From Archaeoglobus sp. JdFR-37 (lineage in GTDB: Archaea; Halobacteriota; Archaeoglobi; Archaeoglobales; Archaeoglobaceae): DNA of 56,138 bases. The stretch covers positions 62,001 through 118,138 of the forward strand of contig MTMY01000032.1 of NCBI GenBank assembly GCA_002010215.1. The letters are read 5' to 3'. The notes beneath the pieces are model-generated. The model searched no databases and had not been told where the DNA came from. It saw only the letters and a program-made list of their open reading frames with translations. A program made the position numbers and the translations under genes. This document shows, piece by piece, positions 14,138-50,990 of the stretch (within the stretch, counting starts at the first letter, position 1; the number at the start of each line of letters is the position of its first letter).

Positions 14138-17100
14138 ATGGTTAATCGGGAGATACCTGAAAGTTCAGGAGAAGATGATGCTGGTAGGACGGTAGGAGAG
14201 AAAAATAGGCTTGAAAGCCTTATCGATTCTATAAAAAGTATTGTGTGGGAGGCTGATGTAGAAACGTTTCAGTTCACCTATGTGAACAAGCAGGCTGAGC
14301 GAATTCTGGGTTATCCTTTAGAGGACTGGAAGAAGCATAGGTTCTGGTTCAGCGTTCTTCATCCTGATGACAGTGAATCAGTCATTTCTAACTGCAGAAA
14401 AGCTATCGCCGATAAAAAAGATTTCAGGTTAGAGTACAGAGCAATTGCTGCTGACGGGAGTGTTGTATGGTTTGAAGATATCGTTACAGTGGTTGTGGAA
14501 GATGACCGGCCTGTGAAAATCAGAGGAGCCATGGTAGATATTACTGATAAGAAGAGAGTAGAGAGGGCTTTCAGAGTGCTCAATCAGTTTAGCAGGGCAT
14601 TGATGAGAGCTGAAAATGAGAACAGTTTGCTCAACGATACATGCAAGATAATCGTCGAAGATGGAGGATATATCTATGTCTGGATCGGTTATGCCATGCC
14701 TGATAAAACTGTGAAGCCGGTGGCAAGAGCTGGCAAAGATGGCTATGCTGAGGCGATAAAGGATACATGGGTTGAAAGTGAAACCAGAAAAGGCCCTACA
14801 GGAGCAGCAATAAGGGAAAAAACAGTAGTAATCGCCAGATATTTAGATACTGGGGGATTTTCCAAGTCCTGGAGCGAGGAGGCTTTGAGGAGGGTTTTTG
14901 CATCCTCAATCGCTCTACCTCTCAAACATGAAGGCGATGTGCTGGGGGCCCTTAATATTTATTCATCCGAAAAGAATTCCTTTGATGAAAAGGAGGTTGA
15001 GCTGCTCAGCGAACTTGCGGACAATCTCGCATACGGTATTGCCTTAATGAGACTTGAAAAAAGAAGGAGAAGGATGGAGAAACTACTTGAATCATTGTGG
15101 GAAATAGCCAGTCTCGAAGCTGATTTCAAGACGCTTTGTAATCGAACTCTTTATGAAATTCTCCAGCTCACCAGCAGCAAATACGGCTTCTTTGGCTCCA
15201 TTGAAGGCGATGTTCTTGTAGTCCATGCCTGGAGTGAAGACGTCATGGAAGAGTGTCGAATAGATAGAATCTATAGATTTCCCATTGAAGGTGCCGGACT
15301 CTGGGCCGATGCTGTAAGGGAGAAAAGAGATGTTATTATCAATGACTACAGCAGCTATTCAGGCAGAAAAGGAACTCCTGAAGGCCATGTGCCTCTTAAA
15401 AATCTGCTCTTTGTACCTGTTTTCAGTGGGGAAGAGGTAGTCTCACTGGCCGCCGTTGCAAACAGGGAGGGAAACTATGATGAAGAAGATGCAGAACTCA
15501 TCAGGATTTTTCTGGCAAACGTTCAAAAGGTGCTGGAGAGGGCCAGACTTAAAGAGCAGCTCAGAGCAATTCTAGAGAATATTGTTGATGTGATTTTAAT
15601 AGCTGATTTTGAAGGCAACATAAAATTCGTCTCCCCTTCCATTGAGTTTATTTCCGGATACAGACCTGAAGAGATTATGGGCAGACATGTTCTTGAGTTT
15701 GCACATCCTGAAGATTATGAAACCATTCTCAAAAGCATGTCCAAGCTGGCTGAGAACCCCGGTATAGCTATGAGGGCTGAATTCAGGGCCAGAAGCAAAG
15801 ATGGCACTTGGAAGCATTTTGAGGCCATCGGAAAGAATCTCGGTGATATACCTGGAATAGAAGGAATAATGGCAAATATCAGGGACATAACCGAAAGAAA
15901 AAAGCTGGAGGAGCTCTATAGCACTGTAATTGAAAATACTGGAACGGGGATGTTATTGCTGGAAGGATTGAGGGTAAGCTTTGCCAATAGACAGGCGGAG
16001 ATGATTCTGGGAAGTGTGAAGGATATTAGAGATATTCTATTCGGGGATGATCTAGAGAGGGTGCTGGAAAAAATCAGAATTCTGGAGGTTGAACCCTCAA
16101 GATCTCCAGAATCCTTTGAAGCAAGAGTTAAGGATAGAGAAGGGAAGATAAGAAATGCTGTGCTGACAGTCTCCTTGATTCCTGGGACAAAAAGCAAAAT
16201 AGTATCAATCCTAGACGTTACGGAGCTGAAGGAAGCTGAGAGGAAAATGAGAGAGAGTGAGGAAAGATACAGAACACTCTTTAAAAAATCCAGAGATGCA
16301 ATTGTGCTTACAGGTATGGATGGAAGGATAATCGACTGCAATGATGCCGCTTTGAAGCTTGTGGGGATGAGTAAAGCAGAGGTAATCGGAAAACCCTTCA
16401 CAGAGCTGAACCTAATTGAGAGAGAAGATATCCCATACCTGATGGAACTCTTTTTCAGAGGGGTCAGGGAAGAGATAAGCATGGTGGAGATTAAGGCGAA
16501 GAGAGGAGATGAGACCAGATGGTTTGAAGTTTCACCCACTGTGCTGAAGCAGAAAGGAGAACCATACGCTTTTCTCAACATAATCAGAGATGTCACAGAA
16601 CGAAAAAAAGCTGAGGAAGAGTTGATGTTCACTCTTGAAAGGCTCAAAATTCTGCATGAACTAGATCAGGGGATTATAACGGGAAGGTCATTTAAGGAGA
16701 TTGCCGTGACAGGTTTGCAGCATATGGTGGAGTTTACAGGCAGCGACATGGGCGTTCTTTTCACTCTAGATCCAGGGAGGAGAAATCTGGTTCCTATAGC
16801 AGTCCATCCCGCTCATATAGTATGCAAAGACTATATTCCCACAAATCACATGAGGAATCTAAATGCTCTCATGCAGGGGGAGGTTGTAAGAATTGACAAC
16901 CTGTTGGAGCTTAATGACTTCGCAGAACCTGAAAAGTTCATGCTGAAAGCAGGTATTCGTTCCTACATCCAGATCCCGCTGAGAGTTAGAGGCGAAATAA
17001 TGGGCATCCTTCTCTTGACCTCAAAGAAAATCGGTACCTTTGAAAGAGTATCCGAATTTCTGAAAGAGATATCAGACCAGCTCGCCATTGCTTTACAAGA

Positions 17101-17368
17101 GGCAAGACTTTTTGATATGAGAATAGAGTCCATAAGACAGATAGAGCGTAACATAGAGCAGTTTGCTGTACTTGTAGACCATATAAGAAACCCACTGGCA
17201 GCCATTGCTGGTATAACGGAAACTGAGATAAAGGATAGAAAAGTGGCAGAAAAAATTCAAAATCAGGTTCAAAGAATAAACAGGGTGGTAGAAAAGCTTG
17301 ATAAAGGCTGGATTCAGTCTGAGAAGATCAGAGAATTTCTGAAGAAGAGCTGGAGTAAAAATGAGTGA
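14138..17368 (+). CDS. Multi-sensor PAS/GAF protein with C-terminal HisKA (DHp) but no HATPase domain
   Basis: PAS/PAC motifs (DITDKK, DITERK, DVTELK, DVTERK), three GAF-like regions, H-box DHIRNPLAAI about 70 aa from the end. Confidence 0.9.
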   Translation: MVNREIPESSGEDDAGRTVGEKNRLESLIDSIKSIVWEADVETFQFTYVNKQAERILGYPLEDWKKHRFWFSVLHPDDSESVISNCRKAIADKKDFRLEYRAIAADGSVVWFEDIVTVVVEDDRPVKIRGAMVDITDKKRVERAFRVLNQFSRALMRAENENSLLNDTCKIIVEDGGYIYVWIGYAMPDKTVKPVARAGKDGYAEAIKDTWVESETRKGPTGAAIREKTVVIARYLDTGGFSKSWSEEALRRVFASSIALPLKHEGDVLGALNIYSSEKNSFDEKEVELLSELADNLAYGIALMRLEKRRRRMEKLLESLWEIASLEADFKTLCNRTLYEILQLTSSKYGFFGSIEGDVLVVHAWSEDVMEECRIDRIYRFPIEGAGLWADAVREKRDVIINDYSSYSGRKGTPEGHVPLKNLLFVPVFSGEEVVSLAAVANREGNYDEEDAELIRIFLANVQKVLERARLKEQLRAILENIVDVILIADFEGNIKFVSPSIEFISGYRPEEIMGRHVLEFAHPEDYETILKSMSKLAENPGIAMRAEFRARSKDGTWKHFEAIGKNLGDIPGIEGIMANIRDITERKKLEELYSTVIENTGTGMLLLEGLRVSFANRQAEMILGSVKDIRDILFGDDLERVLEKIRILEVEPSRSPESFEARVKDREGKIRNAVLTVSLIPGTKSKIVSILDVTELKEAERKMRESEERYRTLFKKSRDAIVLTGMDGRIIDCNDAALKLVGMSKAEVIGKPFTELNLIEREDIPYLMELFFRGVREEISMVEIKAKRGDETRWFEVSPTVLKQKGEPYAFLNIIRDVTERKKAEEELMFTLERLKILHELDQGIITGRSFKEIAVTGLQHMVEFTGSDMGVLFTLDPGRRNLVPIAVHPAHIVCKDYIPTNHMRNLNALMQGEVVRIDNLLELNDFAEPEKFMLKAGIRSYIQIPLRVRGEIMGILLLTSKKIGTFERVSEFLKEISDQLAIALQEARLFDMRIESIRQIERNIEQFAVLVDHIRNPLAAIAGITETEIKDRKVAEKIQNQVQRINRVVEKLDKGWIQSEKIREFLKKSWSKNE

Positions 17369-18416
17369 GCAGGATTTCTCTGAAAAAATAAAGATTATTG
17401 GCGAGGTTCTGGATAGCCTCCCGTTCTACGCAATGCTGGTGGATGAAGACCACAGAATACTTTTTGCCAACAACAAGGTTAGAGAAGAGTTCAAAAAGGA
17501 CGTGGGTGGAATTCTGGGTGAGTACTGTCCAAAAGCAATCCATGGAATGGATGAGCCATTTCCAGGCTGTCCTCTGGAAGAAGTTCTGGAAAATGAATGT
17601 AGCCCCATTGAGCGGGAAGTCTACGACGAAGAGAAGAATATCTGGCTCATTTCAGCCGTTTACCCCCTCAATCTGAAAACTGAAAAGAAAAAAAGGGTGT
17701 TTCTACATTTTGCGCGTGATATAACAGAGAGAAAGATGATAGAAAGAATTAGGAAAGAAAGAATGGAGCATATTGAAAAGGAAAAAAGGCTGAGCCAGGA
17801 GTTCAATGACATTCTTACCCTTATAAATAAAACAATCAGACACGACGTCATCAACAATCTTACAGCTATAATAGGGGCTCTAGAAGTTTACAGAGAGACG
17901 GGTGATGAAACATGGCTGGAAAAAATCTCGGACAAGGTGAAAAAGTGTGTTGAGATAATTGAGGGGACGAAAGATCTTGAAGTTCTTTATAGGGGAAAAG
18001 AAGTTCAGATTCTTAATATCAGAGAGGTTATAGAAGAGGTTGCTAAGGACTATGATGTGGATGTGAGAATTGATGGAAACTGCTACGCTTTTGCTGGCGA
18101 GGCAATATTTTCTGTCTTCGATAACCTCTTCGGAAATGCCATAAAACATGGAGGTGCAAGTAGAATTGATGTAAGTATCAAGACAAAGAACGGGACTTGT
18201 GAGATACGAGTTGCCGACAACGGAAGAGGCATTCCAGATGAAGTTAGGAACAGGATATTTGAAGGGGGCATCAGCTACGGTAATGCTGCGGGAACCGGAC
18301 TTGGGCTGTATATAGTCAGGAAAATAGTGGAGATCTACGGAGGTTCAGTAGATCTAGAAAGCAGTTCTGGAAGTGGAGCCGTTTTTGTGATAAGGCTGAA
18401 ATGTTATGAAATTTAA
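17361..18416 (+). CDS. PAS-domain histidine kinase
   Basis: H-box RHDVINNL, N-box NLFGNAIKHG, G1 DNGRGI, G2 GTGLGL. Confidence 0.93.
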   Translation: MSEQDFSEKIKIIGEVLDSLPFYAMLVDEDHRILFANNKVREEFKKDVGGILGEYCPKAIHGMDEPFPGCPLEEVLENECSPIEREVYDEEKNIWLISAVYPLNLKTEKKKRVFLHFARDITERKMIERIRKERMEHIEKEKRLSQEFNDILTLINKTIRHDVINNLTAIIGALEVYRETGDETWLEKISDKVKKCVEIIEGTKDLEVLYRGKEVQILNIREVIEEVAKDYDVDVRIDGNCYAFAGEAIFSVFDNLFGNAIKHGGASRIDVSIKTKNGTCEIRVADNGRGIPDEVRNRIFEGGISYGNAAGTGLGLYIVRKIVEIYGGSVDLESSSGSGAVFVIRLKCYEI

Positions 18417-39799: not shown

Positions 39800-40816
39800 A
39801 TGGCTGCGGTAAGAGGGAGTCCACCAGTATGGAAAAAGAAGACCATTGAGGAGCTCAGGAATATATTCACGTCTTATCCAGTTGTAGCTCTGGTGGGATT
39901 CAGAGGTGTTCCAGCTGGCCAGATGCAAGAAATAAGAAGAAATTTCAAGGAATTCGCCCTCATAAAAGTGACCAAGAACACTCTAATTGAGAAGACCCTC
40001 GATGGGCTTGGAGGAGAATTTGCAAAGCTTAAGGACTACATAGAGGATCAGACGGCGATAGTCGCTACAAACATGAATCCCTTTAAGCTATTCAAAAAGC
40101 TTGAAGAGACAAAGATTCCAGCTCCACTGAAACCAGGTCAGGTTTCACCTGTTGACGTTGTGGTTGAAAAGGGGCCCACTCCATTCCCGCCTGGCCCCGT
40201 TATTGGAGAACTTCAGATAGCTGGCCTTCCTGCAGCCATCGAAAAGGGGAAGGTCGTCATTAAAGAAACTGTTACAGCCGTCAAGGCTGGAGAGGTAGTA
40301 AAGCCGGAAGTGGCGAGAGCTCTTGCAATGCTTGGCATAAAGCCCCTGAAACTTGGGCTGGAGCTCAGAGCAGTCCTTGAGGATGGTATAATATTCACAC
40401 CAGACACGCTGGCAATAGATGAGGCCAAAATAATGGCAGACTTCGAAGAGGCTGCCAGAAAAGCTCTGAACCTCGCCGTAAACGCTGCCTACATGACTGA
40501 AGAGACTGCAGAGATTCTCCTGATGAAGGCATTCATGGATGCAAAGAACCTTGCAGTGAATGCTGTGATATTCGAGGAAAATGTGATAGAAGATATAATC
40601 GCCAAAGCATACACAGAAATGCTAAGCATTGCATCACTGCTGCCAAATGAAGCCCTTGATGAAGATGTCAAAGAGAGGCTCTCAGGAATTCAGGCTCAGG
40701 CTCCTCCTGTAACTGTTGAAGAAGAGGAGGAGAAAGAGGAAGAGAAGGAAGAGGAAGAAGAAGAGGAGAAGCGTGAGGAAGAAGCTATTGAAGGTTTAGG
40801 TGCATTATTTGGATGA
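39800..40816 (+). CDS. rpl10: 50S ribosomal protein uL10 (P0)
   Basis: KVTKNTL, GPTPFPPGP, acidic tail ending EGLGALFG. Confidence 0.97.
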   Translation: MAAVRGSPPVWKKKTIEELRNIFTSYPVVALVGFRGVPAGQMQEIRRNFKEFALIKVTKNTLIEKTLDGLGGEFAKLKDYIEDQTAIVATNMNPFKLFKKLEETKIPAPLKPGQVSPVDVVVEKGPTPFPPGPVIGELQIAGLPAAIEKGKVVIKETVTAVKAGEVVKPEVARALAMLGIKPLKLGLELRAVLEDGIIFTPDTLAIDEAKIMADFEEAARKALNLAVNAAYMTEETAEILLMKAFMDAKNLAVNAVIFEENVIEDIIAKAYTEMLSIASLLPNEALDEDVKERLSGIQAQAPPVTVEEEEEKEEEKEEEEEEEKREEEAIEGLGALFG

Positions 40817-40844
40817 CGTTAAAAGGTAAAAGGAGGTAATAGAT

Positions 40845-41168
40845 ATGGAATACGTGTACGCTGCACTGCTCCTGCACTCAGCAGGAAAGGAAATTTCAGA
40901 AGAGAATGTTAAAACTGTGCTGGAGGCTGCTGGAGTTGAGGTTAACGAGGCAAGAGTCAAGGCTCTTGTGGCTGCTCTTGAAGGTATTGATATCGAAGAA
41001 GCAATAAGCAAGGCTGCATTTGCTCCAGCAGTCGCCGCTGCACCAGCTGCTGCAGCTCCAGCAGCTCCGGCTGAGGCAGAGGCTAAAGAGGAAGAGAAGA
41101 AGGAAGAAGAGGAAGAAGAGAAGGCTGAAGAGGAGGCCATCGAAGGGCTTGGTGCCCTCTTCGGCTGA
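40845..41168 (+). CDS. rpl12: 50S ribosomal stalk protein P1 (L12)
   Basis: [11 protein letters not shown], Ala-rich hinge, EGLGALFG. Confidence 0.97.
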
Positions 41169-41211
41169 TTTTGATTTATTTTTAATTCTTACTTTTTCCT
41201 TACCTTCTTTT
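41169..41211 (+). terminator. Oligo-T-rich archaeal terminator region after rpl12
   Basis: Several T runs directly after the stop codon. Confidence 0.45.
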
Positions 41212-41286
41212 ATGGGGAGATTCGGAATTACTACTACAAAATGAAGGTAGATGACAGAATTTGACTAAAAAAAGAGAGAAACATGA

Positions 41287-41673
41287 ATGATACACATCAT
41301 CGTGGCGATTGCATTGATCGTACACGGCTTAGTGCACTTGCTGGGTAGAGAGCAGCGTAACCAATAGCGTTAGCATTTGCCACCACGGTTGTAAGGAGAA
41401 GATTGCGACTCCTGCAACCACGAAGCCAACGGCGGCAAGAAGCCAGAGCAACCCAACCATTCGAATGCCTGCATCACCCATATCCAAATTTCCAGAGAGC
41501 AATGTGGTCTTGTAGGCGAAGCCTTCCACCTCAGCTAATCTCCAAGGCACCACGAACTGGTGATTTGCATCTTGGGTTGGCCTGATTCCCAATTTGGTGT
41601 GCTGGTTAACTTAGCTATCCTAGCCTACCTGTTCTTCGGCGAACAGATTGGCTTAATGCCCCAGTTGCATTAA
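41287..41673 (+). pseudogene. 128-aa membrane protein gene interrupted by an internal inversion (41347-41556)
   Basis: Plus-strand ends MIHIIVAIALIVHGLVHLLG and LVICILGWPDSQFG...PQLH* are in frame; the 70 middle codons lie on the minus strand. Confidence 0.85.
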
Positions 41674-41800
41674 GCTGCTTTAAGTCAAAGAAAGGAGTGG
41701 TAAGGCAAAGTAGAAGGCAAATAGCGCTCACCAGCATCATACACAACTGAGAGAAGAAAAACCCACCAAATGTTATAACTAAAAAGAAAATAAACCAACC

Positions 41801-42412
41801 ATGAATACAGGTAAAAAACAGAAAATTGCCATCGTTGCCCCCATTATACTTGTTATTTTCATGTATCCTGTTTTTCAACTGGCCGCAATAACCTTTGGGG
41901 AGCAAACAGGCTGGCATCTTGGATTACTGATATACTGGGTGATCTGGGGTATAGCTTTTCCTCTCTGGGTCATTGGATGGAGGAGCATACAAAATCTAAT
42001 CCGACCTCAAAAGCTAGATAAAAAAGTGCTTTTGCTTGTAATTTTGCCTCTTCTAATAGCTTTAACAGGTAAATCCATACTGGGGGTAGGGTATGAGGGA
42101 GCGAGCATCTGGGCGTCGCTTTTATTGCTATCAACAACATTCGGTAATGGCTTTTTCGAAGAAGTTCTGTGGCGAGGTGTGTATCTGAAAATGTTTCCCG
42201 ATAACGTCTTTTATAGAATGATATGGCCCAGTTTTTTGTTTGCGATTTGGCACTACGCACCAGGATCAGTTTCACCTAATACTAATTTGATAGGTTTGAT
42301 GGTTGGAGCAGGGCTGTTTGGGTTATACTTGAGCTATTTAACAAAGAAAACAAATACAATATGGTGGTCAATAGTAGCTCATACTTCTGGTGGGATTATT
42401 ATGATTCTTTAG
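41801..42412 (+). CDS. CPBP (CAAX protease/Abi) family intramembrane metalloprotease
   Basis: FFEEVLWRG, FAIWH, SIVAH motifs; hydrophobic. Confidence 0.9.
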   Translation: MNTGKKQKIAIVAPIILVIFMYPVFQLAAITFGEQTGWHLGLLIYWVIWGIAFPLWVIGWRSIQNLIRPQKLDKKVLLLVILPLLIALTGKSILGVGYEGASIWASLLLLSTTFGNGFFEEVLWRGVYLKMFPDNVFYRMIWPSFLFAIWHYAPGSVSPNTNLIGLMVGAGLFGLYLSYLTKKTNTIWWSIVAHTSGGIIMIL

Positions 42413-42633
42413 TCATTAATACGTGATTTTCTTGACTTGTACTCGTTAATCGTCATGCCTCGCTCATCTTCAATTTATGGGTTCTTGTGTGGGTGGAACG
42501 TGGGCGGATCGCACAATAGGATTGCACAATATTTTTAGTAAGAGAGGTTCGATATCACTCAGATCACCTCTCGCTGCGTGAAAGTTCCCACACCCGCAGA
42601 AAATTATCCTAAATCATTTAAGGAGGGAACAAC

Positions 42634-43173
42634 ATGAAAGGCCCAATCATAATCGTAGATTACAATCCTCAATGGCCAATCTTGTATGAAGAAGAGAAGA
42701 TTATGATTCTCAGCGTAATTGGTGATAAAGTGGTGGCGATCGAGCACATCGGAAGTACAGCCGTCCCCGGTTTGGGAGCGAAGCCAATTATTGATATCAT
42801 GGTTGCTGTCCGTCATCTTTCCGATGCCGACGAATGTATCGAACCACTCCAAAGCATCGGCTATGAATATGTTCCCGAATACGAAGTTTCAATCCCGGAG
42901 AGACGCTTTTTCCGCAAGAATCCTGTAAAAGTACCTCCGAAAGCACACATTCATTTACACATTGTTGAGCGGACGAGTGATTTCTGGGAGCGGCACATTC
43001 TGTTTCGGGATTTCTTACGCACCCATCCTGAGATAGCTCAGCAATATTGCCAATTGAAAAAGGAATTAGCCGCCAAGTTTGGTTCGGATCGTGACGCTTA
43101 CACCGCTGCTAAGACATCGTTTATCGAATCTGTAGTCGAAATGGCCCGTGCCAAGAAAGCAATCCGTCCTTAA
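42634..43173 (+). CDS. GrpB family protein (nucleotidyltransferase fold, UPF0157)
   Basis: IEHIGSTAVPGLGAKPIIDI, HIHLH, FRDFLRTHP, YTAAK; SD AAGGAGG. Confidence 0.93.
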   Translation: MKGPIIIVDYNPQWPILYEEEKIMILSVIGDKVVAIEHIGSTAVPGLGAKPIIDIMVAVRHLSDADECIEPLQSIGYEYVPEYEVSIPERRFFRKNPVKVPPKAHIHLHIVERTSDFWERHILFRDFLRTHPEIAQQYCQLKKELAAKFGSDRDAYTAAKTSFIESVVEMARAKKAIRP

Positions 43174-43257
43174 AGACCTGCTAACGGCTCTTTTATTCGT
43201 GAAACGTTATGTCAATCCGCCCGCTATTACGAAGTAATTATATACTGGATTTGAAGG

Positions 43258-44139
43258 GTGGACAAAATGGTAAAAATTGTACTGATTATTTTGGGGGTAG
43301 TCGTCATTTTAGCAGCACTTTCTATCACCATCGGCAACATCACATTTAACAGAGAGGTAAAAAACGAAGTAGAGGAACTTTTTAAAAAGAGTAAAAAGAT
43401 TGAAGAGAGCGGAGAAACAGGAGCAGCGCCAGAAGTAATTACTGAAGCAGATATAGGAGGCTTACCAGAACCCGTTCAGAGGTATTTGAAATACACCCAG
43501 ATCATAGGCAAGGAAAAGATTAAAACTGTCAGGTTAAAACAGGGTGGATATTTTCGGATGAAAGAAGATCAGAAATGGATGCTAATAGAAGCGGAGCAAT
43601 ACTTCAATGTGGATTCTGCTGAGTTCATCTGGGCAGCAAAGGTAAAATTTGCCCCATTTCTGTCAATCTACGCAAAAGACGAATTTATTGACGGGAAAGG
43701 GAGTCTAGTAGTAAAACTGCTTGGATTCATCAAAGTTGTTGACGCGAAGGGTTACGAAGTCGATCATGGAGAGATTATGAGGTTTCTGGCTGAGTGCATA
43801 TGGTTCCCTTCGGCATTTCTAAATGACTACATCAAATGGGAGGCTATTGATGATGAGTCAGCTAAAGCAACCATAAGTTATCAGGGGGTTTCAGCTTCAG
43901 CTACCTTCCATTTTAACGAAAAAGGAGAAGTGATGAGCATTACTGCGAAACGATACAGAGAAGTAGATGGCGAGTTCATTCTTGAGGATTGGGAGGGGCA
44001 GATTTTAGAGTACAAAATGTTTAATGGCGTTATTGTCCCGAGCAAGGTCAATATTATCTGGAAACTGGATACTGGGGATTTTTGTTATGATAAAATTGAG
44101 GTGGTTGATATAGAGTATAATAATCCCTCAGCGTATTAA
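43258..44139 (+). CDS. DUF6544/DUF6920-like membrane-anchored protein; start may be ATG 43267
   Basis: ITEADIGGLPEPVQRYL, AEQYF, FIW, RFLAECIWFPSA motifs. Confidence 0.75.
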   Translation: MDKMVKIVLIILGVVVILAALSITIGNITFNREVKNEVEELFKKSKKIEESGETGAAPEVITEADIGGLPEPVQRYLKYTQIIGKEKIKTVRLKQGGYFRMKEDQKWMLIEAEQYFNVDSAEFIWAAKVKFAPFLSIYAKDEFIDGKGSLVVKLLGFIKVVDAKGYEVDHGEIMRFLAECIWFPSAFLNDYIKWEAIDDESAKATISYQGVSASATFHFNEKGEVMSITAKRYREVDGEFILEDWEGQILEYKMFNGVIVPSKVNIIWKLDTGDFCYDKIEVVDIEYNNPSAY

Positions 44140-44222
44140 AATTGAAAAGGCAATCAAGAACATAAGTATAAGAATGTGAAGTGAAAGTTATTGGATTCAA
44201 AATTAAATTCAAACAATAATAG

Positions 44223-49195: not shown

Positions 49196-49963
49196 ATGAG
49201 AGCTACTTGGAAGGGCAGCATTACCTTTGGCCTAGTATCCATACCCATCAAGCTGTACAATGCAAGGATCACAAGGGAGATCAGCTTCCACATGCTTCAC
49301 GCCTCAGATGGGGGGCGAATAAGGCTGAGGAGAGTATGCGAGAAGTGTGGAAAGGAAGTGGGCAGAGATGAAATTGTGAAGGGTTATGAAATCTCAAAGA
49401 ATGAGTACGTAATACTTACAGAAGAAGACTTCGAGAAGATTCCTCTGAAAAGCGCCAAGGCCATCGGCATCCACCAGTTTTTCGACCCTTCTGAGCTGAA
49501 CATAATTTATTACGGGAGTTTCTACTACGTGGCCCCAGACAAGGGCGGAGAAAAGGCCTACTCTTTGCTGACTAAAGCCATGGAAGAGACCAATAGCGTG
49601 GGGATGGGAAAGATAGGTATGCGAGGGAAGGAATATCTGGTAGCAATTCGGCCTTTCAACGGTGGCATGGCTCTGGCACAGCTTTACTATGTGGATGAGG
49701 TGAGGAGCCCTGCAGAAATTCCGGGGTGGGGTGCAAAAGCAGAATTTACTGAGCAGGAGCTTGAACTGGCAAAGCAACTTGTCCTAGCCATGAAAAGGCC
49801 CTTGAGGCTTGAGGATTACAGAGATGAGTACAAAGAGGCACTGATGCAGCTAATCGAAGCTAAACTTGCCGGGAGAGAAGTTAAGGTTGTTGAAGAGGTT
49901 GAAGCTGCAAAATCGTTGCTTGATGCACTTAAGGCAAGTCTTGAATCCGTGAAGCAGGAGTGA
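49196..49963 (+). CDS. ku: Prokaryotic Ku protein (NHEJ)
   Basis: MRATWKGSITFGLVSIPIKLY, IVKGYE, YRDEYKEALMQLIEAK, LLDALKASL. Confidence 0.96.
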   Translation: MRATWKGSITFGLVSIPIKLYNARITREISFHMLHASDGGRIRLRRVCEKCGKEVGRDEIVKGYEISKNEYVILTEEDFEKIPLKSAKAIGIHQFFDPSELNIIYYGSFYYVAPDKGGEKAYSLLTKAMEETNSVGMGKIGMRGKEYLVAIRPFNGGMALAQLYYVDEVRSPAEIPGWGAKAEFTEQELELAKQLVLAMKRPLRLEDYRDEYKEALMQLIEAKLAGREVKVVEEVEAAKSLLDALKASLESVKQE

Positions 49964-50018: not shown

Positions 50019-50990
50019 ATGAGCTGGTTTGACAGAGTTATCCAGCCAATGCTGGCCAGACCTTCAAAGCCTTTCAGCTCACCCAACTTCATTTACGAAC
50101 TTAAATTTGATGGGACAAGATGCATTTCCTTCATTGACGTTGAGAGAAATCAAATAAGGATGCAGAATCGGAGATTAATGGAGATCTCCTACAGATACCC
50201 TGAAATAGATTTGCCATCAGCTTTCGGCAAAAGTGTAGTGGTGGATGGGGAGATAGTTGTTCTGAAAGGTGGCAAGCCAGATTTTAGCTTGCTCCAGAAG
50301 CGGGAGCATGTGGAGTCAAGAACAAAAATTTCGCTACTTTCGAAACTGTATCCTGCAACTTACATGGTTTTTGATATCCTTTATATTAATGGAGATGGTT
50401 GGATTATGGACAGAGCGCTGAAAGAGAGAAAAGAGGCGCTGGAAGAAGTCATCTCCGAAACTCCACACGTTCTGAAAGTTGAATGGATTAAAAGCAAGGG
50501 GGGCGAGTTTTATGAGAAGGTTGTCGCCCTCGGAATGGAAGGAATTATGGCAAAAAAGCTTGGCTCAGTGTATCAACCCGGTAGGAGGAGTGAAGATTGG
50601 CTTAAGATAAAGAAGAGCGACACTGTCGACTGCGTGATTGCTGGCTACCTCGAAGGTGAAGGGTGGCGGACTGGTTACTTCGGCTCCCTGATTCTGGCAC
50701 TGTATGATGGCAATACTCTTGTCCACGTGGGTCAGGTGGGCACTGGCTTCGATTCAGAATTTGTAAGACAATTTGGAGAAAAGTTGAAGGAAATCGAAGT
50801 TGATCAACCCTACTTCGATACTGAGTTCAAGCGGAAAGTTCACTGGGTCAAACCGGTTTACGTCTGCGAGGTGGAGTATCTGGAGACCACAAAGGATGGG
50901 AAGCTCAGGGCACCGGTTTTCAGAAGGTTGAGAAGTGATAAGAGTCCGGAGGAGTGCACAGTTGACCAAATCATTGACAGAATCGACTAA
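50019..50990 (+). CDS. ATP-dependent DNA ligase, stand-alone LigD/LigC-type ligase domain
   Basis: ELKFDGTR, VDGEIV, VFDIL, EGIMAK, YQPGRRSEDWLKIK, VGTGF, LRAPVF. Confidence 0.93.
   Translation: MSWFDRVIQPMLARPSKPFSSPNFIYELKFDGTRCISFIDVERNQIRMQNRRLMEISYRYPEIDLPSAFGKSVVVDGEIVVLKGGKPDFSLLQKREHVESRTKISLLSKLYPATYMVFDILYINGDGWIMDRALKERKEALEEVISETPHVLKVEWIKSKGGEFYEKVVALGMEGIMAKKLGSVYQPGRRSEDWLKIKKSDTVDCVIAGYLEGEGWRTGYFGSLILALYDGNTLVHVGQVGTGFDSEFVRQFGEKLKEIEVDQPYFDTEFKRKVHWVKPVYVCEVEYLETTKDGKLRAPVFRRLRSDKSPEECTVDQIIDRID

Follow-up and report, generated by a model that had tools for sequence, protein, structure and literature searches.

A repeat-free, base-exact inversion of 210 bp has probably inactivated an accessory membrane-protein gene in Archaeoglobus sp. 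JdFR-37

Introduction

Intragenic invertons, reported by Chanin et al. in 'Intragenic DNA inversions expand bacterial coding capacity' (PMC10028968), are short inverted segments within a coding region that bring in a premature stop, and the accessible part of that paper includes one archaeal example with an early stop. The locus described here shares the short inverted segment, its position within a coding region and the premature stop. According to the same portion of the text, invertons have flanking inverted repeats and a presumed invertase and occur in both orientations in one population (PMC10028968), whereas we find no repeats, no recombinase gene in the window and one orientation in all contig data sets. 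Gene-altering programmed inversions (Milman et al., NAR 2023, PMC9881135) likewise change a coding sequence; as far as the available excerpt of that article describes them, they are programmed, driven by a recombinase and yield alternative functional alleles, whereas the inversion studied here yields a truncated product and shows first decay. Evolutionary microinversions (Potapova, Kondrashov and Mirkin 2022, PMC8755829) are in-place, base-exact and fixed, as our case appears to be, and were also found by sequence comparison; the 59 human–chimpanzee events covered in the accessible part of that study measure 17–33 nt, are precisely copied and are all flanked by inverted repeats. Our segment, in contrast, is 210 nt long and has no repeats. 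When paired nuclease cuts are made in genome editing, the fragment between the two breaks can be inverted by non-homologous end joining. Such inversions have homology-free junctions and a fragment reinserted backwards at its own site, as at our locus; no example from natural prokaryotic populations was found in the literature searched, and both junctions here are loss-free.

Here, we analyze a broken gene of Archaeoglobus sp. JdFR-37. It lies in what we call the window, the whole stretch of 56,138 nt that was analyzed, which belongs to a genome assembly of 52 contigs (94.5% complete). We propose that the locus is very probably a real, fixed and young pseudogene, in which codons 21–90 of a horizontally acquired accessory gene are reversed in place, and that, most likely, the gene was put out of action recently and does not serve as an on/off switch.

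Results

The broken gene has 128 codons and occupies window positions 41287–41673 in three pieces, with codons 1–20 on the + strand, codons 21–90 on the − strand and codons 91–128 again on the + strand. The head of the gene (41287..41346, +) supplies the start codon and codons 1–20, which encode most of helix 1; as read from its open reading frame (ORF), it is identical at 17/20 residues to P0003, a protein of 128 aa that is the nearest intact homologue and serves as the reference for identity counts. When the + strand is read onward, ORF 41287..41367 carries these 20 N-terminal hydrophobic residues and then six unrelated ones before a premature TAG (41365..41367), which closes the reading at 26 residues. 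The inverted middle (41347..41556, −), 210 nt in length and encoding codons 21–90, is legible on the opposite strand only, where it is recognized by its homologue matches and aligns with residues 21–91 of P0003 (E 2.2e-34). The tail (41557..41673, +) encodes codons 91–128, that is 38 residues, and the stop codon, and aligns on the + strand with residues 90–127 of P0003 (E 1.7e-15, 87% identity). Head and tail are in the same frame, positions 41287 and 41557 being 270 nt, or 90 codons, apart. The collinearity of the three pieces with the homologue is far beyond chance.

Flipping the middle piece by script produces a protein of 128 aa without internal stop. The first-pass annotation had proposed the three pieces, their coordinates and frames and the single 128-aa protein obtained by flipping, and all of this holds in the ORF readings and in the alignment to P0003; its question whether the restored protein has a full-length homologue is answered by that same alignment, which is gapless from residues 1–128 to 1–128 with 83.6% identity. 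The description of the inversion as codon-precise is also correct (210 nt, 70 codons), and by our own arithmetic any inversion within a gene has a chance of about 1 in 9 of being so. When longer proteins were searched with the 70 residues of the middle piece, 60 homologues of 124–399 aa emerged, mostly 124–131 aa (best E 2.4e-29), and their sequences start like the head and end like the tail of the broken gene. The restored protein retains 11/11 invariant and 18/18 near-invariant columns of a 38-member family alignment (A1). Family membership, judged by full-length collinearity and conserved residues, appears solely after positions 41347–41556 are flipped; in its present order the DNA does not contain an intact gene.

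The inversion also creates a chimeric ORF of 87 aa (41329..41592, −), composed of 12 foreign residues, the 70 inverted codons and 5 foreign residues. Its start codon is TTG, and we treat it as a by-product of the inversion and not as a gene.

The restored DNA was also compared with L006, the nearest named relative, which is a locus of a Methanofastidiosia metagenome-assembled genome (MAG). Identical bases number 48/60 in the head, 159/210 in the middle and 84/114 in the tail, and the restored gene agrees with L006 in the bases at both junctions. Because the middle has diverged from L006 to an extent resembling that of the head and tail, we regard it as the gene's own sequence. A foreign patch was considered as the source of the middle piece and ruled out, its divergence from relatives being equal to that of the flanks.

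The family has no Pfam model, and its members carry the source labels 'ABC transporter permease' or 'hypothetical'. No Pfam match above cut-off was obtained with the pieces, the best being DUF7475 (E 0.06), whose 14 bits fall short of the cut-off of 31.3. The AlphaFold model of P0003 (pLDDT 95.1) places helices at residues 2–16, 18–22, 47–73, 79–96 and 102–117, which amounts to four helices, that of residues 2–22 being kinked, and a short strand-rich loop. We describe the restored product as a four-helix membrane protein. Mapped on the model, one break lies where helix 1 ends and the other midway through helix 3. A Foldseek search of the PDB with the model of P0003 found no match at E <= 0.001.

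We then place the breakpoints at 41346|41347 and 41556|41557, to about 1 nt, because symmetric shifts reduce the identity of the restored protein to P0003: inversion of 41347–41556 gives 107/128 identities, a shift of ±1 gives 106, shifts of ±2 or ±3 give 105, and a shift of +2 nt introduces a stop. At codon resolution, no base has been lost or gained. Within ±25 nt of the junctions, inverted words are at most 4 nt long in either order, present or restored, and that length was also reached in 1997/2000 shuffles of the present order and in 1967/2000 of the restored one. Likewise, a repeat search of the window yielded no pair of inverted arms placed one at each junction. Microhomology is zero nt at both junctions, where position 41346 is T against G, the complement of 41557, and position 41347 is A against T, the complement of 41556, so that the inversion can be neither extended nor shrunk by one complementary base. 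We found no recognition sequence common to the two junctions. These results confirm that, as had been claimed from the letters alone, neither an inverted repeat nor microhomology is present at the junctions. Archaeal histones wrap DNA in steps of 30 bp, and 210 bp is 7 × 30 bp, a coincidence that we take as numerology only.

Blunt re-ligation of a released fragment would be expected to give junctions like these, which lack homology and have lost nothing. Our tentatively preferred account, which we hold to be a real possibility without giving it even odds, is that two double-strand breaks 210 bp apart would have released the fragment and that homology-independent end joining would have re-ligated it backwards. 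A double break re-ligated backwards was among the options listed in the first-pass annotation; it stands as the best fit to the anatomy, with no homology and no base lost or gained, and as a cause we only infer it. The Ku and ligase genes that were said to be encoded about 8 kb away are present, with Ku at 49196-49963 (+, E 1.9e-49) and an ATP-dependent DNA ligase at 50019-50990 (+, domains E 5.2e-37 and 1.4e-27). The two genes are adjacent and lie 7.5–9.3 kb downstream of the broken gene, and their link to the inversion is circumstantial. End joining of the Ku and LigD type usually leaves small losses or additions, whereas both junctions here are clean.

A stand-alone LigD_N domain (LigD-type 3'-phosphoesterase) is encoded elsewhere in the genome (G000:C4:79974-80273), and a LigD primase-polymerase was not found in the 94.5%-complete genome. 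The archaeal end-joining set here is either partial or incompletely assembled.

The same dead gene could have arisen through replication template switching or microhomology-mediated break-induced replication, in which 210 nt would have been copied off the opposite template before a switch back. Models of this kind do predict in-place, base-exact inversions, and we consider this origin unlikely, though worth keeping in view: the junctions offer no inverted repeat, their 4-nt word being at chance level, and zero microhomology at either end, and the segment is 210 nt long against the 17–33 nt of the microinversions in the accessible part of PMC8755829. The weight left by end joining and template switching goes to other or unknown causes. 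We infer that the inversion is a mutation scar and not a regulatory device.

The stretch is present in five public runs from four studies, each time as separately built contigs, and some of the four studies may share one sampling campaign. Counting a junction as bridged when a contig extends at least 31 nt to either side of it, both junctions are bridged in run X1 (41124-42100), run X2 (41124-41659) and run X3 (41203-41612). In run X4 (41320-42100) the right junction is bridged and the contig reaches only 27 nt past the left one, and in run X5 (41320-41530) the left junction is crossed with 27 nt and the right one is not covered. Runs X2, X3 and X5 come from other studies and X4 from another sample; X1 is possibly the source sample of the assembly itself and lends no independent support. 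In addition, an exact 28-mer from within the inverted segment retrieved L085, a JGI metagenome contig of 301,898 nt, which runs collinear with window positions 39980-43007, and thus across both junctions; the 3028 nt show 4 mismatches and stay on one strand throughout. The intact order, or a strand-changing joint, was seen in 0/5 runs and in 0/1 metagenome contig, with the reservation that contigs drop rare variants. The search for the intact orientation that had been suggested for this locus, run here on contigs, thus returned only the flipped order.

Position 41320 is where the contigs of X4 and X5 start, and 41530 is where that of X5 ends, each position lying about 27 nt to the left of a junction. 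All 8 listed pieces of X5 are <=334 nt, and we therefore read these ends as probably the SNP bubbles of a further strain.

The flipped form occurs on two haplotypes. Runs X1 and X3 are identical to the window and represent haplotype 1, and X2, X4 and L085 represent haplotype 2, which differs from the window at about 9 sites and one indel in 10 kb. Haplotype 2 carries a C>A polymorphism at 41443, which changes TGG to TGT on the − strand and Trp58 to Cys; the variant is present in X2, X4, L085, the protein P0071 and X5, a run that covers part of the stretch only. Trp58 is invariant in 38/38 relatives in the family alignment, and Trp58Cys is the only substitution seen in the 87-aa ORF; as a single substitution in 387 nt, it does not prove relaxed constraint statistically. 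Every conserved residue is still present in the three pieces of the window's own haplotype, and selection on the pieces is therefore conceivable. In a collection of 5.8 billion proteins we found no intact allele of this species and no intact protein nearer than P0003 (83.6%). A search with the 87-aa ORF retrieved two products of the flipped allele only, P0071 (87 aa, Trp>Cys, 4 contigs) and P0072 (66 aa, the window's own), the chimeric ORF having been predicted by public gene callers as a protein of either length. The protein collection holds no more diverged copy of the 87-aa form. The earlier remark that the event looks recent is supported.

Could the flipped order have been kept for a useful new product? 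The candidates would be the 26-aa single-helix peptide, the 87-aa chimeric protein or the 37-aa C-terminal tail. All three pieces are open, and the 87-aa ORF has its TTG start and is called as a gene in public annotations. The pieces, however, divide a compact fold of four helices within helices 1 and 3, the sole substitution in the 87-aa ORF strikes the invariant Trp, and the collection, lacking a more diverged 87-aa copy, gives no sign of persistence beyond this population, all of which makes this reading improbable.

We regard as very improbable a repeat-free, reversible ON/OFF switch, an option put forward by the first-pass annotation. On this reading, an enzyme would flip the 210-bp segment without reading inverted repeats and so turn the membrane partner of DUF6544 on or off, leaving a fraction of the cells with the complete protein. 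The junctions are exact, so that re-flipping restores a perfect gene, and no piece has decayed in the window's haplotype. Contigs can miss a rare second orientation, and public assemblies may thus show a majority OFF state; inverton screens, as described in the accessible part of PMC10028968, start from inverted repeats and would miss a repeat-free switch by design. The data nevertheless do not support this option. The contigs of all five runs and the one metagenome contig hold a single orientation, the protein collection has no intact allele of the species, haplotype 2 is without the invariant Trp58, and the two junctions share no recognition sequence that an enzyme might use. The recombinases for which a search had been recommended were not found in the window, with no Pfam recombinase, integrase or transposase match among the 53 window ORFs scanned, and a genome-wide search limited to PF00239 gave one partial Resolvase match (63/145 positions) on another contig, C6. 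A bridge recombinase of the IS110/IS1111 type was also weighed as the agent of the flip and discarded, since such an enzyme would likewise require matching sites in opposite orientations.

A k-mer (de Bruijn) assembler has no path by which to invert a segment that lacks inverted repeats. The last of the options listed by the first-pass annotation, an assembly or sequencing artefact in an organism that truly has the intact gene, could appeal to the assembly being in 52 contigs and to X1 being possibly its own source, and is rejected as having a negligible probability because the flipped order recurs in independent contigs (X2, X3 and X5 from other studies, X4 from another sample), in L085 and on two haplotypes, which with X1 makes 5 runs from 4 studies plus one metagenome contig. 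Among the listed data sets that hold the stretch there is no RNA record.

An intact gene for a DUF6544/DUF6920 protein (43258..44139, +, E 1.6e-83 and 1.2e-78) lies on the broken gene's strand 1.6 kb downstream, and a gene for an Rce1-like CPBP protease and a GrpB gene are found between the two. With the family alignment as query we obtained 73 family loci, whereas P0003 alone as query gave no relative in genome or metagenome contigs. In at least 21 of the 73 loci (tblastn) a DUF6544/DUF6920 gene lies directly downstream of the family member, and the two are adjacent in L006. Furthermore, the family is fused to DUF6544/DUF6920 in the proteins P0048 and P0057 and in the genomes G017, G026 and G051, which belong to the window's family or order; the fusion proteins measure 368–399 aa and come from several archaea and from metagenome proteins. 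Judged from this neighbourhood and these fusions, the 128-aa membrane family and DUF6544/DUF6920 appear to form a module, which can be seen in the genes of the window and at loci L003, L004, L006 and L086, and the broken gene would be the membrane partner of the DUF6544/DUF6920 protein. Our literature search found no paper on DUF6544.

Within the window's taxonomic family, a search with P0003 found matches in only 2/91 other genomes, with 28–35% identity and in fused ORFs of 368–373 aa. The closest relatives among the 73 loci belong to a Methanofastidiosia MAG and to Chloroflexota MAGs. Synteny with the family members G004 and G006 stops just past the ribosomal P1 gene, and the similarity to G006 restarts on another contig from window position 43432, inside the DUF6544 gene. 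Because of this interruption, the broken gene and the CPBP protease and GrpB genes (window 41170-43430) look like a lineage-specific insertion. The GC content is 0.417 for 41170-44200 vs 0.453 for the whole window. The rarity of family matches, the position of the closest relatives outside the family and the end of synteny after P1 together indicate that the broken gene is most likely a horizontally acquired accessory gene. The contig of the same-genus genome G001 breaks off within the P1 gene, at window position 41134, and a search of that genome with P0003 gave no match.

In the ribosomal P0 and P1 genes, the sequence for the acidic tails (41038-41123, 40717-40773) is made up of low-complexity repeats rich in GAA, at which both public contigs and the assembly of the same genus, G001, break; the ancestral state of the neighbouring locus is thereby hidden.

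Discussion

The history that we consider would begin with the horizontal gain of the gene as the membrane partner of a DUF6544/DUF6920 protein. Its inactivation, by cuts at the end of helix 1 and in mid-helix 3 that leave a + strand reading of 26 residues, would be recent, and the flipped allele would subsequently have become fixed in the species. If so, the locus offers a clean natural case of a kind of mutation seldom documented from prokaryotes: the reversal in place of a few hundred bases, exact to the base and free of repeats. It would have been caught soon after the event, and it is traced here across several environmental data sets. If end joining is the true cause, it would also provide field evidence that an archaeal Ku–ligase pair re-ligates a released fragment.

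The locus further calls for caution in annotation, as gene callers make unrelated short ORFs of such loci, and the 87-aa and 66-aa products are stored as proteins. A similar caution applies to inverton screens, which, to the extent that the accessible text of PMC10028968 describes them, are blind to repeat-free inversions when they start from inverted repeats. As a by-product, the analysis draws attention to an uncharacterised 128-aa membrane family that fusion and neighbourhood tie to DUF6544/DUF6920.

Elsewhere in the window, at 14138-18413, two overlapping + strand ORFs, 14138-17365 and 17361-18413, when taken together resemble a single, very long sensor histidine kinase of the PAS/GAF type. 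The first ends past its HisKA domain and the second bears PAS, HisKA and HATPase_c domains, and the region represents either two kinases or one frameshift-split gene.
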